Shown here piece after piece: positions 10,345 through 39,067 of a stretch of DNA of 40,665 bases; the first letter of the stretch is position 1, and the number at the start of each line of letters is the position of its first letter. The notes under the pieces were generated by a model. That model saw only the letters and a list, made by a program, of their open reading frames with translations. It did not search any database and was not told the DNA's origin. A program made the position numbers and the translations under genes. The DNA is from a virus (Duplodnaviria > Heunggongvirae > Uroviricota > Caudoviricetes). Location: the IMG/VR virus record IMGVR_UViG_2687453300_000007; one strand, given 5' to 3'.

Positions 10345-11187
10345 TCATGATGAAATTGCCGAAGTTTTTTTATCGTGCTGAAGTACCGCAAATGCCATTA
10401 AAACCTCAAGAGAATAGCGGCGATAATACTTAACAAAACCATAATAAAATACTCGGGATGCAGCAATACAAAACAAGAGAAGAAAACAAAAAGGTAACAG
10501 TCTGATATTTATATCTATTAAAAAGGATAGAAGGAGCAGGAACATAAGCAACCAGACTGAAGCGAGAAAAACAAATGTAATGTTTCTACAAAAACCATAC
10601 AAAGCAACATAGTTTTGCATTTTCACCTGATGATTTTTAGAATGTTCATACACATAATGATAAGCAAGGCGAAAAAGATCGCCCCTCAAGCCCTTACGTC
10701 GATATAGCGTAGATACAGAAAAAACATTTATATAACCATCTCGTATTTGCGGCCAAAAGACTTTAATAAGTATAGAATGCAGTGTGGTTTTATGATGTTC
10801 TGCTTTATCAAAAGCTGATACAGGAAATAAAAAAACTCCACGAATAAAATTAACTATACTGAACTTAGTATTATGTCGTTTTATTTTCAGGGAGCTTCTT
10901 TTAGAAAACAGATAAATTGAAGGATACCCAAGTTTACTGTTCATGTATTTTTCAATTAAACAGGATGATAGAATAGATATGAAGTGACCTGAAATATATG
11001 ATAGAACGATTAATACCACATATATAAATACACTTATTATTTCTTTATATTTCAGGATATGGTTAAGAATACCTTCTATATAAACAGGGTTAATTTCAAT
11101 AGAAAACAAAAAAAGGATAAACAGGAATAACCCACCTGGAATTAGATAGCCCAAAAAGTCATAAAATGAAAACGGATTCTGTGTCAC
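10345..11187 (-). CDS. Hypothetical polytopic membrane protein (280 aa, about 4 TM)
   Basis: GTG start at 11187 with strong SD (AGGGGGAAG). Two N-terminal and two C-terminal hydrophobic helices flank a soluble stretch of about 125 aa. AT-rich with atypical codon usage. No family recognised. Confidence 0.6.
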   Translation of the reverse strand: MTQNPFSFYDFLGYLIPGGLFLFILFLFSIEINPVYIEGILNHILKYKEIISVFIYVVLIVLSYISGHFISILSSCLIEKYMNSKLGYPSIYLFSKRSSLKIKRHNTKFSIVNFIRGVFLFPVSAFDKAEHHKTTLHSILIKVFWPQIRDGYINVFSVSTLYRRKGLRGDLFRLAYHYVYEHSKNHQVKMQNYVALYGFCRNITFVFLASVWLLMFLLLLSFLIDINIRLLPFCFLLLFCIAASRVFYYGFVKYYRRYSLEVLMAFAVLQHDKKTSAISS

Positions 11188-11226
11188 ACTTCCCCCTGTG
11201 TTACTTGTAAATTAAAGGGTAAAACA

Positions 11227-11724
11227 TTATTTGTTTTTCCGTAAAGGATTAGCTTTCCATCTTCTTACTAACCATTCGAATTCTTGATATGTAGTATCCG
11301 AATTAATGCTTTCTCTGATTGCTTTAATTAATGGCTCGGCAATATCATATGTCTCTACAACTGTTGTGTAAGATGTTCTTTTTATCATTTTTTCATCATA
11401 AATACCTTCACGAATACTTACAGCAACTCGCTCGTAAAAATTTAAAATATATTGAAATTTTCGACGCTCGGCCATTTCTTCATCTGTTATTATGCAACCA
11501 TCACAAGGAAAAACATAAGAACGAAATGATTTGCCTGAACGATGCACTTGTTTCAGGGTATGCAATGACTCTATATATTGCATATCTTGCCGACTCTCAA
11601 AAAGAAAGTTGGCCGTTTGAGTTTTTTTTGCGGTACGCACATTGTAGATAATGGTTCCAATGGCAACCAAAACGCCAAGCAGAACAATAGCATTGCTGAT
11701 GATTTGTAGTGTTATTGGGTTCAT
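11227..11724 (-). CDS. Hypothetical single-pass membrane protein (165 aa)
   Basis: N-terminal TM helix (ITLQIISNAIVLLGVLVAIGTIIY) followed by a soluble domain of about 135 aa. Lies 39 bp upstream of the 280-aa gene on the same strand. AT-rich. Confidence 0.6.
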   Translation of the reverse strand: MNPITLQIISNAIVLLGVLVAIGTIIYNVRTAKKTQTANFLFESRQDMQYIESLHTLKQVHRSGKSFRSYVFPCDGCIITDEEMAERRKFQYILNFYERVAVSIREGIYDEKMIKRTSYTTVVETYDIAEPLIKAIRESINSDTTYQEFEWLVRRWKANPLRKNK

Positions 11725-20600: not shown

Positions 20601-20742
20601 CCCACCCACATGGGGAAACCTCGGAATATGGGGCGACCGCCTTCTGGATGCACTGGAAACCTGTAACGCGGATAAACGGGCCATTGCTGAACTGGATAAG
20701 AGAATAGCCGAACTGACACACCAGACGGGAGTAACACAATGA
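20431..20742 (+). CDS. o-spanin (Rz1/LysC-like lipoprotein)
   Basis: Alternate-frame ORF overlapping the i-spanin 3' end. Signal peptide with lipobox LLTGC, then a proline-rich segment. The start may instead be the internal ATG at 20461. Confidence 0.55.
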   Translation: MNSYATILQKMNAPTLCLTLVLLTGCAGTQNAPGPAPSVRLIPQTLTMPVTPPPFPDPPTWGNLGIWGDRLLDALETCNADKRAIAELDKRIAELTHQTGVTQ

Positions 20743-22616
20743 CCAGTAAGAACTTTGCACTGATTACAGCCATGACACAGGCTGAACTGACTCAAAAGGT
20801 GAATGAACATCTTGCGAAAGGGTGGCATCTTCAGGGGGAGACGCGGGTTGCCTACGAACCCGGCACCCCGTGGTATCTAATGCAGGCAATGGTGGCCGAT
20901 GGCACTACAGACATCTCACCTGATTCCCCCCAGCACGGCAGCGTGCCGGAGTGGTATTACGTGGTGGTACTTGCTGGTCAATCCAATGCCATGTCATATG
21001 GTGAGGGAATGCCGCTGCCGGATTCTTACGATGCGCCCCACCCACGCATTAAGCAACTGGCCCGTCGCAACACAGTGACTCCCGGTGGTAAAGCATGCGC
21101 ATTTAACGACATCATTCCGGCAGACCACTGCCTGCATGATGTTCAGGATATGAGCGCACTGAATCACCCGAATGCAGACCTGAGCAAAGGGCAGTATGGC
21201 TGTGTCGGACAGGGCTTGCATATTGCCAAACGCCTGTTGCCTTACATTCCACAGAATGCCGGGATTTTACTGGTTCCATGCTGTCGTGGTGGTTCGGCAT
21301 TCACCCAGGGCGCGGAGGGGACATTCAGCGAGTCCACAGGAGCCAGTCAGGATTCGGCTCGCTGGGGTGTGGGTAAACCTTTATATCAGGACCTGATTTT
21401 GCGCACGAAGGCCGCATTGCAGAAAAACCCAAAAAACATGCTGCTGGCCGTATGCTGGATGCAGGGCGAATTTGACATGAGCGCCGCTACGTACTCACAG
21501 CAACCTCCGCTGTTTACGGCCATGCTGAAACAGTTTCGTGCGGACATTACCGAGTTTAACACGCAGTGTCATGGAGGCAGAGCGGCAAGTGTGCCATGGA
21601 TTTGTGGTGACACGACGTATTACTGGAAAAACACCTACGGCACGCAGTACGACACCATTTACGGGGCGTACAAAAACAGGGAGAGCGACAACGTTTTCTT
21701 TGTGCCGTTCCTGACCGATGGTAGTGGCAACAATACCTCCACCAACGCACCAACGGAAGATCCGGATGCTGCAAGTGAGGGATATTACGGTTCGGCATCC
21801 CGAACGAACAAAAACTGGGTATCATCAAATCGCCAGACGCATTTCAGCTCATGGGCGCGTCGTGGCATTATTCCCGATCGTATGGCAACCGCTATTCTGA
21901 ACGTAGCCGGTCGCACCTTAGCCTTCATCAGTGGTAAGGCACCGGAAATCAAACCCTCGCCCGGCGGCGACACGCCATCGGGGCCGTCTGAAGATGCATC
22001 CGTACGCACAATCTCCCTGTTGCCGACAGCCGGAGATGCTGCTGCGCAGGGCTGGAGCATTAAGAATGGCGGAATTCAGTTGTCAGAGGGTGTATTTAAG
22101 ATCACCAAGCAGAGCAATAAAGCCTGGTCCCTGACGCGCCCGGTGGATGACGCAGTCTCCCTGCTGACACGGGGTGGCAGACTGAGCTGTAAGTTTCGAC
22201 TGTCAGGCGCACTGACCAACAATCAGTTCGGTCTGGGAATTTATCTGTATACCGATGTAGCGTTACCTGACGTCGTGGCGATGACCGGGACTGGTAACCC
22301 GTTCCTGATGTCGTTCTTCACCCAGACCACAGACGGCAAACTGAATCTGATGCATCACAAGAAAGCAGGAAACACAAAGTTGGGCGAGTTCGGGAATTAC
22401 AGTAACGACTGGCAGACGCTGGAGCTGGTGTTCACCGCCGGCAGTGCCACGGTTACTCCGAAACTGAATGGAGTGGCTGGCCCGGCATTCCAGGTCATAA
22501 AAGACAGTCTGACACTGGGGCTGAATGCGCTGACGTTAACTGATATCACTAAAAATGCCGCGTACGGCGTCGATATCGGCAGCCTGGTGCTGGAAATCAA
22601 TAATCCCGCAGCATAA
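20739..22616 (+). CDS. SGNH-family sialate O-acetylesterase-like protein (NanS-p-like) with N-terminal DUF1737-like region
   Basis: 625 aa. GQSNA motif (…VVVLAGQSNAMSYGEG…) typical of 9-O-acetylesterase/SASA-domain enzymes; N-terminus MTSKNFALITAMTQAELTQKVNEHLAKGWHLQGE… as in prophage NanS-p proteins. Inserted between the lysis genes and R. Confidence 0.75.
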   Translation: MTSKNFALITAMTQAELTQKVNEHLAKGWHLQGETRVAYEPGTPWYLMQAMVADGTTDISPDSPQHGSVPEWYYVVVLAGQSNAMSYGEGMPLPDSYDAPHPRIKQLARRNTVTPGGKACAFNDIIPADHCLHDVQDMSALNHPNADLSKGQYGCVGQGLHIAKRLLPYIPQNAGILLVPCCRGGSAFTQGAEGTFSESTGASQDSARWGVGKPLYQDLILRTKAALQKNPKNMLLAVCWMQGEFDMSAATYSQQPPLFTAMLKQFRADITEFNTQCHGGRAASVPWICGDTTYYWKNTYGTQYDTIYGAYKNRESDNVFFVPFLTDGSGNNTSTNAPTEDPDAASEGYYGSASRTNKNWVSSNRQTHFSSWARRGIIPDRMATAILNVAGRTLAFISGKAPEIKPSPGGDTPSGPSEDASVRTISLLPTAGDAAAQGWSIKNGGIQLSEGVFKITKQSNKAWSLTRPVDDAVSLLTRGGRLSCKFRLSGALTNNQFGLGIYLYTDVALPDVVAMTGTGNPFLMSFFTQTTDGKLNLMHHKKAGNTKLGEFGNYSNDWQTLELVFTAGSATVTPKLNGVAGPAFQVIKDSLTLGLNALTLTDITKNAAYGVDIGSLVLEINNPAA

Positions 22617-28640: not shown

Positions 28641-29163
28641 CAGGCTTTTGTGGCCATTCAGGATTTGCCGTATCCACACGGTTGACCAGAACACTGTAGC
28701 GTTCCCATGCTTCCAGTCGTGTGCGTTCCTCGTCTGTTGCCATATTCAGCCTGACAGCGCGTTCCAGCGGCTGGATGACTGATTCAGCTTCGGAAAGCAA
28801 TGCGGCCTTTTGTGATTCGGCCTGTTGTTGCTGTTCGTCAGCCGTATAAATCCGTTTAACCACAGCTCCGTCCTTAAACATCCACTTACCGGAATCATCG
28901 GTCCGACGATTGGCCGTTATATCGGGAACCTCGACGACGCTAAAACCTTCGGGATTAAGCGTGGAGGCATCTCTGGTGATGGCGACAATAATATTATTTT
29001 CATCGTAAACAATCTTTATGGTGTCTGGCTGAAAGTTTTTCACTTCCTCATACCAGTTTTTTCCGTCCTCAGAGTAAAGCCAGATAACTCCGTGTTTCTT
29101 TGTTAACTCATACTGTTCCAGTGTTTTAGCATTACCCGCTTTTATGTTCTTTAAGTGCATCAT
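28636..29163 (-). CDS. Alternative tail fibre assembly chaperone (G')
   Basis: 175 aa on the minus strand with the same conserved N-terminus ([22 protein letters not shown]…) and a divergent C-terminus. Confidence 0.8.
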
Positions 29164-29697
29164 ATTAAACGCTCGCTACATTATACCAGGTGCCATTTAT
29201 ATACTTTTGAACGGGTCTGTAATAAACACCCGCTATATTATCGGCAGAGTTAGACCCTGTATCCTGAACATTAATACCAGACAATACATGACCTGAAGGG
29301 CACTGGAAATTCCATGTTCGCCAGTTGTTCACTCCATAATATTGCTGTGAACCAAGTCGAACATCTTTCACATAACGGGAATCAAAGTTACCGTAATCCG
29401 AGGGATTAACACGCCCCGTAATATTTATGGTCTTATTACTTTGAATGCTTCCGGGAACAAAGCGCATAACATGGACGTAATTAGCATAAACATCCAGATT
29501 ACCATCGCCATTTTGTTTAAAGCCCGTGTCATTATCACCCAATACAATCGAATTACCGCCAAGAGCACTGGATGTTCCGATACCCAGTGCACCATTCAGT
29601 TGACCACCAGATAACGGCAGTGCACCAACATCTCCTGCTGAAGGTTTTCTGGTGGTGGTGTAAAATTCGGACCAGTCGGCTTCAAAACCATAACCAT

Positions 29698-29706
29698 CAC
29701 GGGCTG
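29698..29706. repeat. IS1 target-site duplication (CACGGGCTG); partner copy at 30475..30483
   Basis: Identical 9-bp direct repeats immediately flank the 768-bp element. Confidence 0.9.
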
Positions 29707-29721
29707 GGTAATGACTCCAAC

Positions 29722-30225
29722 TTATTGATAGTGTTTTATGTTCAGATAATGCCCGATGACTTTGTCATGCAGCTCCACCGATTTTGAGAACGACAGCGAC
29801 TTCCGTCCCAGCCGTGCCAGGTGCTGCCTCAGATTCAGGTTATGCCGCTCAATTCGCTGCGTATATCGCTTGCTGATTACGTGCAGCTTTCCCTTCAGGC
29901 GGGATTCATACAGCGGCCAGCCATCCGTCATCCATATCACCACGTCAAAGGGTGACAGCAGGCTCATAAGACGCCCCAGCGTCGCCATAGTGCGTTCACC
30001 GAATACGTGCGCAACAACCGTCTTCCGGAGCCTGTCATACGCGTAAAACAGCCAGCGCTGGCGCGATTTAGCCCCGACATAGCCCCACTGTTCGTCCATT
30101 TCCGCGCAGACGATGACGTCACTGCCCGGCTGTATGCGCGAGGTTACCGACTGCGGCCTGAGTTTTTTAAGTGACGTAAAATCGTGTTGAGGCCAACGCC
30201 CATAATGCGGGCTGTTGCCCGGCAT
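29722..30225 (-). CDS. insB: IS1 transposase InsB
   Basis: 167-aa ORF matching IS1 InsB (…[38 protein letters not shown]…). Confidence 0.9.
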
Positions 30226-30419
30226 CCAACGCCATTCATGGCCATATCAATGATTTTCTGGTGCGTACCGGGTTGAGAAGCGGTGTAAGTGAACTGCAGT
30301 TGCCATGTTTTACGACAGTGAGAGCAGAGATAGCGCTGATGTCCGGCGGTGCTTTTGCCGTTACGCACCACCCCGTCAGTAGCTGAACAGGAGGGACAGC
30401 TGATAGAAACAGAAGCCAC
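30144..30419 (-). CDS. insA: IS1 InsA
   Basis: 91-aa [46 protein letters not shown]…, the zinc-finger/HTH InsA. Confidence 0.9.
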
Positions 30420-30874
30420 TGGAGCACCTCAAAAACACCATCATACACTAAATCAGTAAGTTGGCAGCATCACCCACGGGCTGAACGATAAAAAATACCG
30501 CCATTTTTATAATTAATCCGAAACTGAGCTGCAGGACAACTTCCGTCTCCCATATAAAAATGAATAATTAACGTTGATGCACCACCAATATTTGCGTTAT
30601 AGGCTCCGCTACTCCAGTTCCATCCAACTGCTTTATCATTCGCAACGGTGCTTCCTGTTTTCCCTAAGGCAAACGCACCAACATGACTTGCTTTTAATGT
30701 GATATCGGAGGAACCATCAAAAGCCACATTGCTTATTTTCCTGGCAGTTTTTAATTTTGCAGCTGTAGAAGCATTGCCGGATAGTTCACCAGAAAGGCCA
30801 CCGCTGAATGTTTGTCGATTAGTCCAGGTATTCGCTGTACTGAGTAACGGTATTTTCTCCCCGCTTGTGCCGAG

Positions 30875-30900
30875 TTCTCGTAAACCGAGGTTTTAAATAA
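30875..30900. promoter_or_regulatory. hix/gix-like inversion crossover site (right)
   Basis: TTCTCGTAAACC-GA-GGTTTTAAATAA, in inverted orientation relative to 27350..27375 with a complementary core dinucleotide. About 55 bp upstream of the invertase start. Confidence 0.75.
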
Positions 30901-30954
30901 TGGCCGTTTCTGGCCTGCATGGCATGATTTGCGCTTTTGGACGGGAGATTCAGT

Positions 30955-31554
30955 GTGCTGATTGGCTATGTAAGGGTATCAACAAATGACCAGAATACAG
31001 ACCTGCAACGAAACGCTCTTGTTTGTGCAGGATGTGAACAAATATTTGAAGATAAATTAAGCGGGACAAAGACAGACCGACCGGGATTAAAACGCGCTTT
31101 AAAGCGCCTTCAAAAAGGTGACACGCTGGTTGTCTGGAAACTGGATCGCCTCGGGCGAAGCATGAAACATCTGATTTCTCTCGTCGGGGAACTACGGGAG
31201 CGAGGGATTAATTTTCGCAGTCTGACCGACAGCATAGACACATCTTCTCCAATGGGGCGTTTTTTCTTCCACGTGATGGGTGCCCTGGCTGAAATGGAAC
31301 GTGAATTAATTGTTGAACGTACACTGGCCGGGCTGGCGGCAGCGCGCGCAAGGGGGCGCACAGGCGGACGTCGACCGAAGCTGACAAAAGAACAGCATGA
31401 GCAAATAGCAAGGCTAATCAAAAACGGGCACGACAGAAAACAACTGGCAATAATTTACGGCATTGGCACATCGACGATTTATCGTTATCACCCTGTAGGC
31501 GATATACAGACTGAAGAAACAACCGGGCAGACTCAGGAAAATGAAAACCGCTAA
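30955..31554 (+). CDS. Serine DNA invertase (Gin/Hin/Pin family)
   Basis: GTG 30955 start with GGGAG SD. (M)LIGYVRVSTNDQNTDLQRNAL…LVVWKLDRLGRSM…GINFRSLTDSIDTSSPMGRFFFHVMGALAEMERELIVERT… closely resembles the e14 Pin / Mu Gin family, with a C-terminal HTH. Confidence 0.9.
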   Translation: MLIGYVRVSTNDQNTDLQRNALVCAGCEQIFEDKLSGTKTDRPGLKRALKRLQKGDTLVVWKLDRLGRSMKHLISLVGELRERGINFRSLTDSIDTSSPMGRFFFHVMGALAEMERELIVERTLAGLAAARARGRTGGRRPKLTKEQHEQIARLIKNGHDRKQLAIIYGIGTSTIYRYHPVGDIQTEETTGQTQENENR

Positions 31555-31576
31555 TCTGACCATTAGCGGTTTTTGT
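31544..31576. terminator. Bidirectional intrinsic terminator between the invertase and U
   Basis: Stem ACCGCTAAT-CTGACC-ATTAGCGGT flanked by A-run and T-run. Confidence 0.6.
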
Positions 31577-31582
31577 GTTAAA

Positions 31583-32077
31583 TCAGAACAGCCCTTTAAC
31601 TGAACTGGCCGCGCTGTTAAGAGATGATGTCACCTTATCTTTGAAGCCGGACAGCATATCACTGAACGATGAGGATTGCAGGCGCTCCCGCAAATCCTCA
31701 TCACAGCGTTCAAGAGTCAGTGAAAATTCTATCTTTTTCGCCTTACCGTAGCGATCAAACTCGGAGCGGGTCGTATTCGTTTCAGTCAGGACATACATGC
31801 CGTAAATCTGCCCGACGCCATCAATCAAAGGCCAGGGTCGTCCTGTATACGCCTGCGTGGTCAGCAGCGACAGCGACACTTCGCCACCTGTAATTTCAGG
31901 ATAAAGCACACCAGAAAGAACGATGCGATCATCACCTGCACCGATATACTGCCAGCTTGCTGAACGGTTAACGCGTTCATTTTTCACATGCCGCCAGCTT
32001 TTGTTTTGCTGTAACTGCTGATGCGGCAGCGTGCGCAGCTCAAAAACAAACATGCCGTAGATCATCATCATGGCCAT
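31583..32077 (-). CDS. U: Tail protein (P2 gpU-like)
   Basis: 164-aa ORF following the tape measure gene on the minus strand. Confidence 0.75.
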   Translation of the reverse strand: MAMMMIYGMFVFELRTLPHQQLQQNKSWRHVKNERVNRSASWQYIGAGDDRIVLSGVLYPEITGGEVSLSLLTTQAYTGRPWPLIDGVGQIYGMYVLTETNTTRSEFDRYGKAKKIEFSLTLERCDEDLRERLQSSSFSDMLSGFKDKVTSSLNSAASSVKGLF

Positions 32078-32083
32078 GACTCC

Positions 32084-34899
32084 TCAATCTTTATCGTAAA
32101 AACTGCCACGCCCGGCACGGGCGCGCCGTTCCATTTCTGCCCTGACCATTTCACCGACCAGTTTCGCCAGTTCGCGGGGATTCTGCGTAACAACGTTATG
32201 CAGATGAACATGAATTTCACCACCAAATCCGGAGGCAACAGGCTCCCGGTTACGGGAAGTTACAGGAACTGATGCCACTGGAGATCGTATAGCCTCCGCC
32301 ACCGGGCGGGAGCTGGCCGCAACAACAGGGACCAGCGCCGGAGGCAGCGGAGCCGGGACCACGGGTGTGATATTAATTGCGGGGGCAGGCTTACTGACCT
32401 GCGCAATCTTCCGCTCCTGCCACTCCCCACGAACAGCAAGTGCTCGGGGCAGGTTTTTAAAGACAATATCGCCGGGGCCAATGCGTTTTTTCGTCTCCTC
32501 AACCAGCTTACCTGTGTTATCAGCAATTTTGCTGAGTCTGCGCAGCGTACCGGTATTGCTGTCTGTGAGCGGTTTATTGTCTTTGGGGTTATCACCTCCG
32601 GTGCCATTGCCATTTTCCACAGGCTTCGGCGGATTGATTTTCGCCAGGTCCCCCTGAAGCAAGGCAACCTTGTCCTGAAGAATGGCCGCACGCTGTGCGT
32701 CTTCGATTTTCTTGCGCGCCCTTTCCGCTTCATCCGGAAGCACACCAAGCTTTTCAAGTATCCACGCCAGCGTATCCAGCAACATTTTTGCAGGTGTCAG
32801 AACAAGTTGTAACGCACCGCCAAGAACGTTACCGAATATCTCGCCAGCACTGGTACATTTATCCAGAGTTTCCTTGCTGGACTCCATCGGAGACAGCAGC
32901 GATTTAAACCAGTTAAACACCTGGCTGATCCCACTCCCGATTGCGTCAAAAACAGGACCAAACCGTTCAAAGGTTTCGCGCAACGGGGTCAGCCTTTCCA
33001 TAATCCCGCTGAACACCCCGGCAAAAAATGCCCTGATGGGATCCCAGTATTTCCAGATGAGAACGGCAGCTCCGGCAAGCGCAGCCACGATAAGGCCGAC
33101 CGGACTGAACAACGCCCCGATAGCGCCCCCAGTAACGAAACGGAACCCGTCACCATTCCCCATAGTGCTGGCAGGAGTCTGACAGCATTCATTGAACCGG
33201 TCAGGAGGGAAAAGCCAAGACGCAGTTTTGCCAGCGGGCCAGCAAGCACACCAATAGCCAGCGACAACGAGCCAACCGTTGCAGTCATTGCCAGCAACGC
33301 ACCGCCTGCTATCAGTAGCTGGCGCGTCAGTACCGGATGGGCCTGCGCCAGCGAGGTGATTTTTTCAAGCACCCGCGTGAGCCACTGCGTGACAGAACGC
33401 AGCGGACCGTCAACCAGATCACTGATGCGAATACGAAGACCTTCCCATGCGCTGTCGAGATTTTTCAGGTCCCCATCAAGATTATCGGCCATTACTTTTG
33501 CAACGCGATCGGCCTCTCCCCTTGCCCCCTGCAATTCTCTGGTCAGTTTTTGCAGCTCTCCTGAACCAGCCGCCGCAACAAGCGTCTGCAAACCAACGAA
33601 CGCCTCTTCTCCGGCGATGTCCTTGAAGAAGGAAACCTGGTCCACCTGTCCGTATTTTTGTGTCGCCTTATAGAGATCAAGCAGCACATCCTCCATCGGG
33701 CGCATTTTGCCTCTGGCGTCAGCAACTGACACCCCCAGCTCTTTCAGCGCATCAGCCGCAGCTTTTGGCGGTGATGCAAGGCGGGACAGACTTGCGCGCA
33801 TGGCCGTACCAGCATCGCTTCCACGAAGACCATTATTGGCAAGCATCCCGGCCATGGCTGCCGCTTCTTCAAGACTGATACCAAGTTTTGCGGCAACCGG
33901 ACCGGTATACTTCATGGTTTCGCCCAGCGCGCGTAAATCAGTATTGGTCCGGGTGAATGCCGCTGTCAGCGTATCGCCAACCCGGTCCATTTGATCGGCT
34001 GTCAGGTTGAACTGTGTGAGGATATTGGAGCCTATATCAGCCGTCTCGCCGAGTTCGACGCCACCTGCCAGCGCCATATTAAGAACACCGGGCAATGCGG
34101 CCTGAATGGCCTGCGGAGTAAAACCAGCCATTGCCAGAAAGCTCTGCCCACTGGCGGCATCACTCGCAGTAAACTGTGTTTCAGAGCCAAGTTTTAACGC
34201 CTGCTCACGCAGCGCCTTAAACTGCGGGCTGTTTTTGTCGATTCGCGTCAGCGCCTGAACGCGGGACATCTCTTTGCCGAACCCGATCGCGGGCTGCAAA
34301 AAACGCCCGGCAGCATAGCCGCCCGCCGCTGCCGCACCAATTGCCAGCGCACCACCTGTTTTCAGTTTTCCCGCGGTTTCCTGCGCGCGCGAATACCGCT
34401 CACGAGCCTGCGTTACACGCGCAAGCGCCTGCCGTTCGCGTTCAAGCTGGTTGTTGTATTGTTCGGTGCGTCTGATGGCCTGCTGGATGGTGTTATCGCT
34501 GCCTGTCAGGGAAATGCCGTGGCGTTTCAGTTCTCCGCCAAGCTCCCGCATTTTCTGAATTTCCCGTGTGCGCGATTCATTCAGGCGTTCAAGCCGGGTG
34601 CTTAACTGCTGCATCAGCTTTTGTTGTTTTTCGCTGAGCACTGTACCCGTGCGTTGTAACTGATTAAGGGCGTTAAGCTGGCGTCGTGCTTTCACGATAC
34701 CCGCATCCGCTTTACTGACAGCGTCGCGGGCGCGCTCAAATGAACGCGCCTGACGCTCGAGATTTTTGATCGCCCCCTGCGTTCGCTGAATGGAGTCACC
34801 AAACTGCCCCATCAGGCGGCGGGCGTTTTCGGCAGGCCGGGTCAGCCTGTCAACGGCGCTGAAAGCGACCCGGATGTCAAGAGTCTTCATTATCTGCAT
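32084..34899 (-). pseudogene. T: Tail tape measure protein (P2 gpT-like), apparently frameshifted
   Basis: Two overlapping minus-strand ORFs (32989..34926 and 32084..33163) both look like genuine tape-measure sequence and overlap by about 175 bp in frames offset by one nucleotide. A C5/G5 homopolymer lies at 33126..33130. Could be a real inactivating frameshift or a sequencing error. Confidence 0.55.
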
Positions 34900-35113
34900 T
34901 CCCGCTGCGAAGTGCCGCCCGCTCACGCCAGCTAACCACTTCGCCGGGCGTCATCATGAAGATTTCGGCGGGCGACCAGTTGAAAATGGCGGCAATATCC
35001 GCCACCAGATCTTCGATGTGCTCAAAGCACACCAGGGTGATTACGCTGCCGTCTCCTGCACGCTCTTCGCGCCAGAGTCTGGCTCGCTCATAAAATTTAC
35101 AGCCACAGCGCAC
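34877..35113 (-). CDS. E' extension reached by -1 frameshift (E+E' chaperone)
   Basis: ORF in the -1 frame relative to E, overlapping the E 3' end, with a run of seven A (plus-strand T at 35139..35145) in the overlap. Confidence 0.45.
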   Translation of the reverse strand: MRCGCKFYERARLWREERAGDGSVITLVCFEHIEDLVADIAAIFNWSPAEIFMMTPGEVVSWRERAALRSGNADNEDS

Positions 35114-35415
35114 AACTGAATAAAATCGCGTGACGACATTTTTTTAATCATCACTTCATCCAGTCGTGGCGAGGTCACGCGAGGCAACAGCGTGAACATG
35201 GTATCCGCTTTCAGATTCAGCACATCAGACAGCGACAGACCACGCAGGGATCCCGCCTGCTCAATAGCCCCGGTGATCTCCACATATGTGATTTTTTCGG
35301 CACCACGCTCAATTGGCCGGGAAAGTTTTACACCACGTTCGACAGCCATATCCTCACCTGACGTCACATCATCCGCTACGGTGTTATTCCGGGTTTCAGT
35401 ATCGATATCTTTCAT
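35041..35415 (-). CDS. E: Tail assembly chaperone (P2 gpE-like)
   Basis: ORF upstream of the tape measure gene on the same strand; the true start may be an internal ATG. Confidence 0.6.
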   Translation of the reverse strand: MKDIDTETRNNTVADDVTSGEDMAVERGVKLSRPIERGAEKITYVEITGAIEQAGSLRGLSLSDVLNLKADTMFTLLPRVTSPRLDEVMIKKMSSRDFIQLCAVAVNFMSEPDSGAKSVQETAA

Positions 35416-35470
35416 CAGTTGTCTCCTTTTCAGTCAGAGGCGACGCACTGCGCCGCCTGCATATTACTTA

Positions 35471-35983
35471 TCAGCCAAGCCCAAGCGCGGAACGAATGCG
35501 GTCAGGCACAATGTCCTTGCCGTCCTTCCGGTAGATGTGGTTCAACAGGTCGATTTCCCACAGCGGGCGATCGTTAACGCTCAGCTTGTAGTAGGTGTTT
35601 TTGACAGCGTAAGTGTGTGATGTGGCTTCGCCCTGTTTGGCCTCCCCCATATCAATTTCCGTCACACGCCCGCGCATCTCGATTTCATACAGATCGCTTT
35701 CTGCATCGGTGTAATATTCACCCGCAAAACGCAGCAGCGTGCCGTCAATCGTGCCGCCATACTTAAGGAACAGTGCACGAACAGCTCCCCCCATGACAAA
35801 GCTCGCATCAAGCGCGGAGTCGTCCAGACCGAGATCAATACTTACTGCTCCCATCATGCCACCACCACGATAGCTGTCGGTTTTGCGCGTCAGTTTGGGC
35901 GGCGTGACGGATGTCACTTTACCCACTTCGTTTTCACCATCCACAAACAACGTAAAAAAGCGAAGATGTTTTGGTACAGCCAT
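35471..35983 (-). CDS. FII: Tail tube protein (P2 gpFII-like)
   Basis: 170 aa, directly downstream of the sheath gene. Confidence 0.85.
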   Translation of the reverse strand: MAVPKHLRFFTLFVDGENEVGKVTSVTPPKLTRKTDSYRGGGMMGAVSIDLGLDDSALDASFVMGGAVRALFLKYGGTIDGTLLRFAGEYYTDAESDLYEIEMRGRVTEIDMGEAKQGEATSHTYAVKNTYYKLSVNDRPLWEIDLLNHIYRKDGKDIVPDRIRSALGLG

Positions 35984-37167
35984 CAGGCACCTCCCAGCAC
36001 CGCAAATGCGGGACCAAAGAATTCATCAGTAAACGTCTGGTAAAGCTCCATGTCTTCCAGCGGGGGAACGGGCGTATATTTGTAGCGAATACGCACACGC
36101 CCCTGACGTAAATCCGTGGTGCCGTTATCCACCACGTCATACCAGCACTCCGCGCCAATCAGTTTCCCGGCAGTAACCAGCGAATCCAATTTTGCCCTGA
36201 TGGCACTGATAACATCCTTCACGTTCGCAGGCGTCAGTGGACTGTCGATGGTTTCAAACTGCGCTTCCGCAATTGAATCAGCCAGCACCTGTGCGGTTCG
36301 GGTATACACCTCAAAGATGTAGGCGTTCGTTTCCGGTGTGCGGTTGCCCCAGAAGCGGAACCCGTTACGACGAATAATGGTCGTGATTTCTTTGTTGTTG
36401 AGGCTGTTGGCATCACTGTCTTCGGCCTGTAACGACCAGAACACATGCCTCGACATCCCCAGCACATTTTTAACCGGAACGTTGGACAGCGATTTGTGCC
36501 AGCCCTGCTCATGGTCAATGTACGCACGAAGGCCGCACGCATAAGCAGGCGCGGGGAACGTTTCGTTTTTGCCACTTTTCGGGTTGTAGGCGATGAAGTC
36601 AGGCCATAAGAGCATCACCTCACGTTCGTTGAATTTCTGGCGGTAGGTAATCGCCTCAGCCATCGTGTTACAACCATGACATGTGGCATACACAAACGCG
36701 CGCAGTTTACCCGCAATCACGCACAGGGATTTTGTCACCGCCTCCGTGTCCAGCTCCGGCGCGGCCAGAATACGCGGACGGTATCCGATGCTTTCATCCT
36801 GCTCTGCAACAAGCAGCGCATACATCCCCGTATAGCTGCCGTCAGATTCAGAACCACCGATAACCAGTTGATCCTGCGTCCTACCGCCTTCTTCTTTGTG
36901 TTCAGCCACGCGAACGACGATCACTTTTGTGCTCACCTGGTCTGCGATAGCCTTAAGCGCACGATAAAGCGTCCCCGTAGTCCCGCATTTTCCCAGCACG
37001 TCATTGACGCGGGTCAGCAGTGTGGGCTTGTTCAGCGGGAACAGCTCCGCATCCGCATCATCCGCCGTTGCCACGATACCGATAACGCTGGAATCAACAT
37101 CATTAATCGCTGTTACCAGGTCGGTACTTTCCGTGACACGGGCACCATGAAAACGAGTTTCACTCAT
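35983..37167 (-). CDS. FI: Tail sheath protein (P2 gpFI-like)
   Basis: 394 aa. Motifs …DADAELFPLNKP…, …FRFWGNRT…, …YKYTPVPPLE… parallel P2 FI. Confidence 0.9.
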   Translation of the reverse strand: MSETRFHGARVTESTDLVTAINDVDSSVIGIVATADDADAELFPLNKPTLLTRVNDVLGKCGTTGTLYRALKAIADQVSTKVIVVRVAEHKEEGGRTQDQLVIGGSESDGSYTGMYALLVAEQDESIGYRPRILAAPELDTEAVTKSLCVIAGKLRAFVYATCHGCNTMAEAITYRQKFNEREVMLLWPDFIAYNPKSGKNETFPAPAYACGLRAYIDHEQGWHKSLSNVPVKNVLGMSRHVFWSLQAEDSDANSLNNKEITTIIRRNGFRFWGNRTPETNAYIFEVYTRTAQVLADSIAEAQFETIDSPLTPANVKDVISAIRAKLDSLVTAGKLIGAECWYDVVDNGTTDLRQGRVRIRYKYTPVPPLEDMELYQTFTDEFFGPAFAVLGGA

Positions 37168-37324
37168 AGCTTCAGCCCCTTGTATCCGTTAAATGATTCG
37201 GCAACAATCATCACCCACCACGCGCGTAATCTCACCCCTGCGCCGTTCTCCCGCCACGGCGACAACAAAAAGCAGTAACCCCCTCCGCACGCACATGCGA
37301 CCATGCCGCACAGGGAGGGAGCAG

Positions 37325-38434
37325 ATGACCGACACCACCATGCAATTGCTCAGTCAGGGCACAGACCCCGTGAAAATGCCGGATTTTGATATTCTCGCGG
37401 AGGGTAAAACGCTGTCAGGCGTGGCAGAGCGCCTGATGAGCCTGTCACTGACCGACAACCGGGGATTTGAGGCGGACCAGCTCACCATCACGCTGGATGA
37501 TGCGGATGGTCAGTTGCAGCTACCGCCACGGGGCGCGCGCCTGACGGTTCTCATTGGCTGGAAAGGAGAACCGCTGACAGAAAAAGGCACTTACATTGTT
37601 GATGAAATCGCTCACGAAGGACCGCCGGACAGGCTGACTGTTTCAGCCAGAAGCGCAGATTTTCGGGATGAATTTAACGTTAAACGTGAGGTGTCCTGGC
37701 ATGATGTGACCGTTGAGCGTGTGGTATCCGCCATCGCTCATCGGTATGGTCTGAAACCGCAAATCAGCGAAATGCTGATGGATATCGAAATCGACCACGC
37801 CGACCAGACCGAAGAAAGCGACATGTCCTTCCTTACGCGCATGGCGGAAATGCTGGGCGCAATCACCACGGTAAAAAGCGGTAATCTGTTATTCATCATG
37901 CCCGGCGGTGGCGTGAACGCACAGGGCCAGCCGTTGCCATCGTTTGCCATCACACGCAGCAGCGGCGATCGCCATCAGTTCCGCATTGCTGACCGCGAAG
38001 CGTATACGGGGGTACGCGCTTACTGGCTTGATCTTAATTACGGGAAAAAGAAAAAAGTCAGCGTGAAACGCCGTAAACCGCCAAAACCCAAAAAGGAGAA
38101 AAGCAGCAGCCGCGAAGGTGATTATATGGAAGGCGCGGAAGGCAATGTGTTTGTGTTACGCAAGACTTATCAGAACGAGCAGGCAGCAAGACGCGCAGCG
38201 GCGGCAAAGTGGCAGCAACTACAACGCGGAGCCGCATCATTCTCCATCACGCTGGCGCGTGGACGTGCAGAACTCTACCCCGAAATGCATGGCACGGTAA
38301 CAGGATTTAAAAGCGAGATTGATAATCAGGACTGGATCATTGCAAAAGCCGAGCACACCATTGATAACAGCGGTTTTACCACGCAGCTTGAGCTTGAGGC
38401 AAAAATCCCGGAATGGATAGCGGAAACAGAGTGA
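37325..38434 (+). CDS. D: Tail protein / late control protein D (P2 gpD-like)
   Basis: Start set at ATG 37325 after GGGAGGGAG SD (the track ORF starts further upstream). About 370 aa. Confidence 0.8.
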   Translation: MTDTTMQLLSQGTDPVKMPDFDILAEGKTLSGVAERLMSLSLTDNRGFEADQLTITLDDADGQLQLPPRGARLTVLIGWKGEPLTEKGTYIVDEIAHEGPPDRLTVSARSADFRDEFNVKREVSWHDVTVERVVSAIAHRYGLKPQISEMLMDIEIDHADQTEESDMSFLTRMAEMLGAITTVKSGNLLFIMPGGGVNAQGQPLPSFAITRSSGDRHQFRIADREAYTGVRAYWLDLNYGKKKKVSVKRRKPPKPKKEKSSSREGDYMEGAEGNVFVLRKTYQNEQAARRAAAAKWQQLQRGAASFSITLARGRAELYPEMHGTVTGFKSEIDNQDWIIAKAEHTIDNSGFTTQLELEAKIPEWIAETE

Positions 38435-38823: not shown

Positions 38824-39009
38824 ATGTGGAAAGGCCCCGAGTCAACTTTAACGTTAACCCGAGGCCCTAACCATCTACCCTCAGCAAGTGATAGGTTAGC
38901 GCCTCCCCGAAAAAGGAGCAAGCGCTATGTCGCAAAAATCGCTTACGGCCATCACATTCTGCGTGACGGCAATCCTCATCATCTGGATGCTGCACGGTTC
39001 GCTGTGTGA
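38824..39009 (+). CDS. Possible mok-like overlapping reading frame
   Basis: 61-aa ORF starting upstream of and overlapping the hok-like ORF in another frame, as in hok/mok/sok loci. Composition is weakly protein-like. Confidence 0.25.
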   Translation: MWKGPESTLTLTRGPNHLPSASDRLAPPRKRSKRYVAKIAYGHHILRDGNPHHLDAARFAV

Positions 39010-39067
39010 AATACGGATGAGTTTCTGGGGAGCGGAGTTTGCGGCGTTCTTACAGTGTAAGCAGTAA
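38927..39067 (+). CDS. Hok/Gef-family type I toxin (46 aa), putative
   Basis: ATG 38927 with AAGGAG SD 8 nt upstream. MSQKSLTAITFCVTAILIIWMLHGSLCEIRMSFWGAEFAAFLQCKQ: N-terminal TM helix followed by the SLCE(I/L) … AAF(L) pattern seen in Hok/Gef toxins. Below the ORF-track size cutoff. Confidence 0.55.
   Translation: MSQKSLTAITFCVTAILIIWMLHGSLCEIRMSFWGAEFAAFLQCKQ

Follow-up and report, generated by a model that had tools for sequence, protein, structure and literature searches.

The tail tape-measure gene (T) of a prophage in Escherichia coli strain JJ1887 is split by the loss of a single G from a short G tract, and this frameshift is an ordinary homopolymer indel of one assembly, already annotated as such: the RefSeq entry for the gene is a pseudogene (AX202_RS04595) described as 'frameshifted'. 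In our opinion the indel is somewhat more likely to be technical than biological. The stretch of DNA analysed here (the window, 40,665 nucleotides) is the reverse complement of positions 946015..986679 of the JJ1887 chromosome (ST131, NZ_CP014316.1), and positions 29084..37926 of the window match the reverse complement of JJ1887 948754..957596 base for base. The prophage lies between serS and dmsA, is P88-like and belongs to the P2 family, with P88 (Xuanwuvirus, Peduoviridae) as its nearest free phage; it bears the name Phi1, given to it in strain EC958 by Forde et al. (PMC4134206).

Table 1. Features of the Phi1 tail region discussed in the text (window coordinates)
Feature	Position	Strand	Basis
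gpT-type tail tape-measure gene (T), disrupted	32084..34890	-	annotation, PF10145, PHROG 28
T 5' reading frame, 633 codons: native residues 1-588 plus 45 out-of-frame; stop at 32989..32991	32989..34890	-	translation compared with the intact JJ1886 protein
T 3' part in the native frame: residues A590-935 of the intact protein; ORF open from ATG 33163	32084..33124	-	translation comparison
G5 tract where one base is lost (C5 on the plus strand)	33126..33130	-	direct reading, comparison
gpU tail protein, 162 aa, intact	31583..32071	-	PF06995
E', in the -1 frame with respect to E; 14 nt shared with the start of T	34877..35113	-	PF06528 (Phage_P2_GpE)
E, gpE-like tail assembly chaperone, 124 aa	35041..35415	-	annotation; PF10109 below curated cutoff
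Slippery heptamer A_AAT_TTT, in frame, within E	35092..35098	-	sequence; conserved in P88
Tail tube, intact	35471..35983	-	ORF listing, annotation
Tail sheath, intact	35983..37167	-	ORF listing, annotation
gpD baseplate hub protein, intact ORF of 369 aa	37325..38434	+	PF05954
DNA invertase of the tail-fibre switching segment	30955..31554	+	annotation; PMC4134206
IS1, 768 bp (29707..30474), with 9-bp target duplications CACGGGCTG (29698..29706, 30475..30483)	29698..30483	.	annotation, alignment

One gene in two frames

What remains of T is read from two open reading frames of the minus strand. The upstream frame (32989..34926) encodes 645 amino acids from its first GTG, or 633 from the conserved start, the ATG at 34890, and the downstream frame (32084..33163) encodes 359. 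They overlap by 175 nucleotides (32989..33163) and are one nucleotide apart, much as the initial annotation had described them (an overlap of about 175 bp, offset by one). Its further claim that both are genuine tape-measure sequences is borne out by the profile matches: the 5' half matches PF10145 (PhageMin_Tail; E = 7.7e-57, aa 228-427) and PHROG 28, 'tail length tape measure protein' (2e-176), while the 3' half matches positions 645-772 of the same PHROG (E = 1.9e-32) and has 100% identity with the C-terminal end of the intact protein. The gene also occupies the position expected of a tape measure: it lies downstream of the sheath and tube genes, with the tail chaperone pair (E/E') on one side and gpU on the other.

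The site of the shift can be read directly. The minus strand at 33130..33126 is GGGGG; in JJ1886, EC958 and S65EC the corresponding tract has six G (nucleotides 1761-1766 of T, codons L587-G588-G589) and is the longest G/C run in the gene. Comparison with JJ1886 places the loss exactly in the five-nucleotide homopolymer that had been suspected from the sequence of the window, and adding the G back gives a continuous protein of 935 amino acids (WP_000853410.1), close to the roughly 940 that had been anticipated. A single continuous tape-measure frame of about 800-1000 amino acids is thus absent from the window and present, at 935 amino acids, in JJ1886, EC958, S65EC and P88. The split is that of one homologous gene with one indel, and not a chance overlap of reading frames. 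The distal half of the protein has two strongly hydrophobic, membrane-like stretches on the Kyte-Doolittle scale (aa 524-554 and 580-616), as is usual for a tape measure, and the second of them contains the frameshift.

The tape measure of P88 (gp45) has the same length as the intact ST131 protein, with which it has 875 of 935 residues in common; at the site where JJ1887 has G5 and a split gene, P88 has GGGAGG. We also observed that four PHROG families of 'unknown function' (17114, 5431, 38463 and 10546) align over nearly their full length with T, but only with fragments of it; split tape-measure genes of deposited phage records are their probable source.

The tail module and the remainder of the prophage

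The order of the tail genes is that of a free phage. In P88, as in Phi1 of EC958 and JJ1886, the genes for sheath, tube, E, E', T and U follow one another on one strand, with the invertase and fibre cassettes flanking one side and gpD, ogr and hok the other. The FETUD operon of P2 likewise has a chaperone pair, whose -1 frame E' (PF06528) overlaps the start of T, followed by a PF10145 tape measure and by gpU (PF06995). P88-like phages differ from P2 in the orientation of the FI-FII-E-T-U block, which is inverted with respect to gpD and the V-W-J-I-H-G genes, and in the presence of the invertase and switchable fibre cassettes beside this block. We considered whether this inversion could be a large rearrangement that crippled Phi1, and rejected the idea, the free phage P88 having the same order.

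The heptamer A_AAT_TTT in E is where the chaperone pair would be expected to have its programmed -1 frameshift, which would yield a predicted E+E' fusion of 179 amino acids. It is unlike the slippery heptamer of P2, which is T_TTT_TTG. PGAP calls E and a 51-aa 'GpE family' piece as two separate coding sequences, with no programmed frameshift. Another peculiarity of the annotation concerns gpD (window 37193..38434): in every ST131 genome examined, PGAP calls only its last 266 amino acids and adds a spurious partial 'hypothetical protein'. This looks like a quirk of start-site annotation; a truncation of gpD can be rejected, since its 369 codons are open from the conserved start, match PF05954 and are called in full in other assemblies.

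An invertase-driven fibre switching segment has been described for Phi1 (PMC4134206), and it is in this segment that the IS1 is found. The initial annotation had taken the IS1 for a hit in the fibre tip. The insertion is real, a genuine transposition with 9-bp target duplications, with JJ1887 as its sole carrier among the 5,426 complete E. coli genomes; the cassette that it entered, however, is the silent, inverted alternative C-terminal cassette of the fibre, and the expressed 661-aa fibre gene (H) and its assembly gene are intact. We therefore reject inactivation of the fibre by IS1 in the current orientation of the segment; the element would disrupt the fibre only after inversion.

In a four-way alignment of the window with JJ1886, EC958 and S65EC, the differences private to JJ1887 are two in number, the one-base deletion in T and the IS1, and the remaining Phi1 genes are identical to their EC958 and S65EC counterparts. 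This comparison with EC958 and S65EC gave no evidence of progressive decay of Phi1. The idea that the prophage is decaying while retaining its cargo is therefore unsupported: the frameshift is private to one assembly among the matches listed (the best 60 of 229 near-identical complete genomes, see below), and both gpD and the expressed fibre are intact.

Three differences in Phi1 are private to the JJ1886 assembly (JJ1886 locus ~11109..11124, 17823 and 22025; window ~28791, 22088 and 17876). One is a 16-column block with a net insertion of 10 bp that frameshifts the alternative fibre-assembly gene within the invertible segment, where clustered assembly discrepancies arising from mixed orientations were reported by Forde et al. 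(PMC4134206); the others are a SNP in the DUF6645 gene and a GGG-to-GG deletion in an intergenic hairpin. The non-structural cargo of Phi1, found at window positions ~20739..22616 (minus strand), 10345..11724 and 38927..39067, comprises a 625-aa DUF6645 protein inserted between the lysis genes and the tail genes, a DUF4760 protein paired with a hypothetical protein, a ParM/ParR-like partition pair, and a Hok/Gef toxin adjoining ogr.

Distribution of the G5 allele

Over window positions 29084..37926, leaving aside the fibre region and the IS1, a single base separates JJ1887 from JJ1886, its sister isolate from the same household: G5 against G6. The DNA of T is otherwise identical in the two strains. 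When T was compared by megablast with the 5,426 complete E. coli genomes, JJ1887 itself gave the only equal-length match among the matches listed, the other 100%-identity matches listed having an aligned span one base longer. A query of 121 nucleotides centred on the tract retrieved 229 records with at least 99% identity; among the best 60 of these, the 121/121 match is that of JJ1887 only, and the next 59 span 122 bases, that is, they have G6.

In data from public sequencing runs, the exact shortened product of 633 amino acids is encoded by 16 contigs from independent runs. Set against the 34,573 index blocks that list the neighbouring gpU protein, this makes G5 a very rare allele overall. 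G5 was confirmed in 10 of 10 contigs fetched from these 16, and in nine of the ten, another one to three single bases are deleted within 5-7 kb. Eight contigs are otherwise identical to JJ1886: each of their extra deletions falls in a run of at least five G, C or A (for example G6 to G5 and G5 to G4 in the tube gene, or C5 to C4 in the invertase), and there is not a single substitution. A look-up with a 305-aa 3' fragment brought up further runs with the same pattern of homopolymer deletions. Deletions so dense, and confined to homopolymers, are the signature of a platform and not biology, so that the G tract of T is demonstrably undercalled by error-prone platforms, and noisy public data sets show this miscall again and again. 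Two runs stand apart: in ERR474107 G5 is the sole difference over 6.9 kb, and in SRR3098856 the sole difference over 4.5 kb is G7. Our literature search found no publications on the run accessions that carry G5.

T is also frameshifted elsewhere, at other positions. Two NCBI drafts (GCA_029124685.1 and GCA_029124735.1) have a 4-bp GCTG tandem duplication at window ~33244, about 113 nucleotides upstream of the G tract, which independently frameshifts the gene and gives products of 642 and 305 amino acids, and in phage record 520873 T is split at yet another site. Real frameshifts in T therefore probably do occur.

Miscall or mutation

The choice proposed at the outset, between an inactivating mutation and a sequencing or assembly error, is the one that carries most of the weight in our analysis. 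On balance we lean slightly towards the G5 call being a residual homopolymer undercall of the PacBio consensus, with G6 present in T of the organism. The errors that typically remain with the P5-C3 chemistry are losses of one base in runs of G or C. The JJ1887 genome was assembled with HGAP3 from PacBio P5-C3 reads (PMC4866839). In the sequence of events that we would propose, the consensus lost one G of the six, and JJ1887 itself would have an intact 935-aa tape measure and the same tail module as other ST131 strains. What is seen resembles the homopolymer undercalls known from long-read (PacBio CLR, ONT) and flow-based sequencing, in that a single base is missing from the longest G/C run of T in a PacBio assembly, and the indel is private to this assembly. 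On this reading the JJ1887 call would be one of the recurring miscalls described above. The rarity of the allele also speaks for an artefact, and no selective reason for inactivating a tail gene in a lysogen is apparent to us.

The alternative, a genuine and very recent G6-to-G5 replication slippage in the JJ1887 lineage after its split from JJ1886, truncating T at residue 588, is a serious one, to which we would give a little less than an even chance. JJ1887 departs from the undercalls just mentioned in that no other such error was found in 140 kb of its assembly and that short-read correction was reported for it: its authors state that they used 125x Illumina reads for error correction and verified the sequences (PMC4866839). 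The comparable PacBio assembly of EC958 was left with only one or two homopolymer errors genome-wide (PMC4134206). Apart from the IS1, no other private indel of JJ1887 was found in the window or in 100 kb of core chromosome. JJ1887 50-150 kb equals JJ1886 over 99,998 bp with zero mismatches and zero gaps, and 12 other G/C runs of at least six are concordant within the 140 kb examined, which implies that few errors are left in the assembly, although the 100-kb comparison bounds the rate of indel errors only loosely. The private IS1, which is certainly real and lies only 2.6 kb away, shows that the Phi1 copy of JJ1887 has diverged; G5 in ERR474107 and G7 in SRR3098856, each as a sole difference, make real slippage at the tract plausible, and the GCTG duplication of the two drafts looks like a genuine frameshift of the same gene. 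Against a mutation, G5 is a singleton among the matches listed (the best 60 of 229 near-identical complete genomes), and from the known indel rates of E. coli about one real small indel or fewer per genome would be expected on so short a branch. Moreover, the deletion is of exactly the type, and in exactly the place, favoured by errors in long-read consensus, and error demonstrably yields the same G5 call in other data sets.

An ORF spanning the IS1 junction, whose start codon had been checked and which served as a marker of JJ1887 read sets, had no match in the Logan assemblies. A mix-up of paralogues in the consensus can be rejected, since JJ1887 has only one place that matches T. In Table 2 of the EC958 paper (PMC4134206), discrepancies are given for 955837-957967, under the label "Phi1 tail region", a range that would overlap T in the current record; we rejected their location in T, as they fit the invertible fibre segment after a shift of 2,541 bp, and the coordinates of that table appear to come from an earlier coordinate version.

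Two other explanations would make the split functional. The frames of T might be joined by programmed ribosomal frameshifting, so that a full-length tape measure is still made. The operon does have one expected -1 site, but it is that of the upstream chaperone pair; in T a +1 shift would be required, at CUG GGG GCG, which matches no known +1 motif, nor does the sequence there offer any known slippery motif in the required frame. The overlap of the two T frames exists solely through the loss of one base, and relatives do not share the split: the gene is a single uninterrupted ORF in P88, 500465-2 and more than 1,300 E. coli genomes, and the two-frame layout is found in JJ1887 only, among the matches listed (the best 60 of 229). 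Programmed frameshifting in T is thus effectively refuted, and we give it next to no credence. The tract might, on the other hand, be a phase-variable contingency switch by which some of the lysogens start or stop producing tails, and it is true that G5, G6 and G7 are all present in public data. The tract is, however, only six nucleotides long and is unconserved (GGGAGG in P88 encodes the same Gly-Gly), the variants are extremely rare and mostly found beside other homopolymer miscalls, and the 59 records that come next after JJ1887 (best 60 of 229) all have G6. A contingency locus should be both conserved and polymorphic in length at an appreciable frequency, and this tract is neither; such a switch seems to us hardly conceivable. 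A weaker version, in which the G6 tract is a genuine slippage hotspot that stochastically yields tail-less (G5 or G7) Phi1 lysogens in ST131 populations, is very improbable as well; if true, a fraction of cells would carry a prophage able to lyse its host and unable to transmit.

If the deletion were real, the product of T would consist of 588 native and 45 missense residues, would end within the second hydrophobic segment and would be without the C-terminal 347 residues of the tape measure. It is established for gpH of lambda and the TMP of TP901-1 that the C-terminal part of the tape measure is required for tail assembly to start on the baseplate hub. By analogy, the C-terminal part of gpT is likely to be needed for tail assembly too, and Phi1 of JJ1887 would for this reason have no functional tails: tail assembly should be abolished, with replication, head assembly and lysis predicted to be unaffected. 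The lesion would be neutral in the lysogen and revertible by slippage. It would make Phi1 non-transmissible in JJ1887, in a prophage otherwise conserved across ST131, a small peculiarity of one strain, without evident consequence for virulence.

A single homopolymer call thus decides whether Phi1 of JJ1887 is scored as intact or as tail-defective, which is mainly a matter of annotation hygiene. The G6 tract is repeatedly miscalled in public data, and a split T in this prophage family should therefore not be read as decay without support at the level of the reads.
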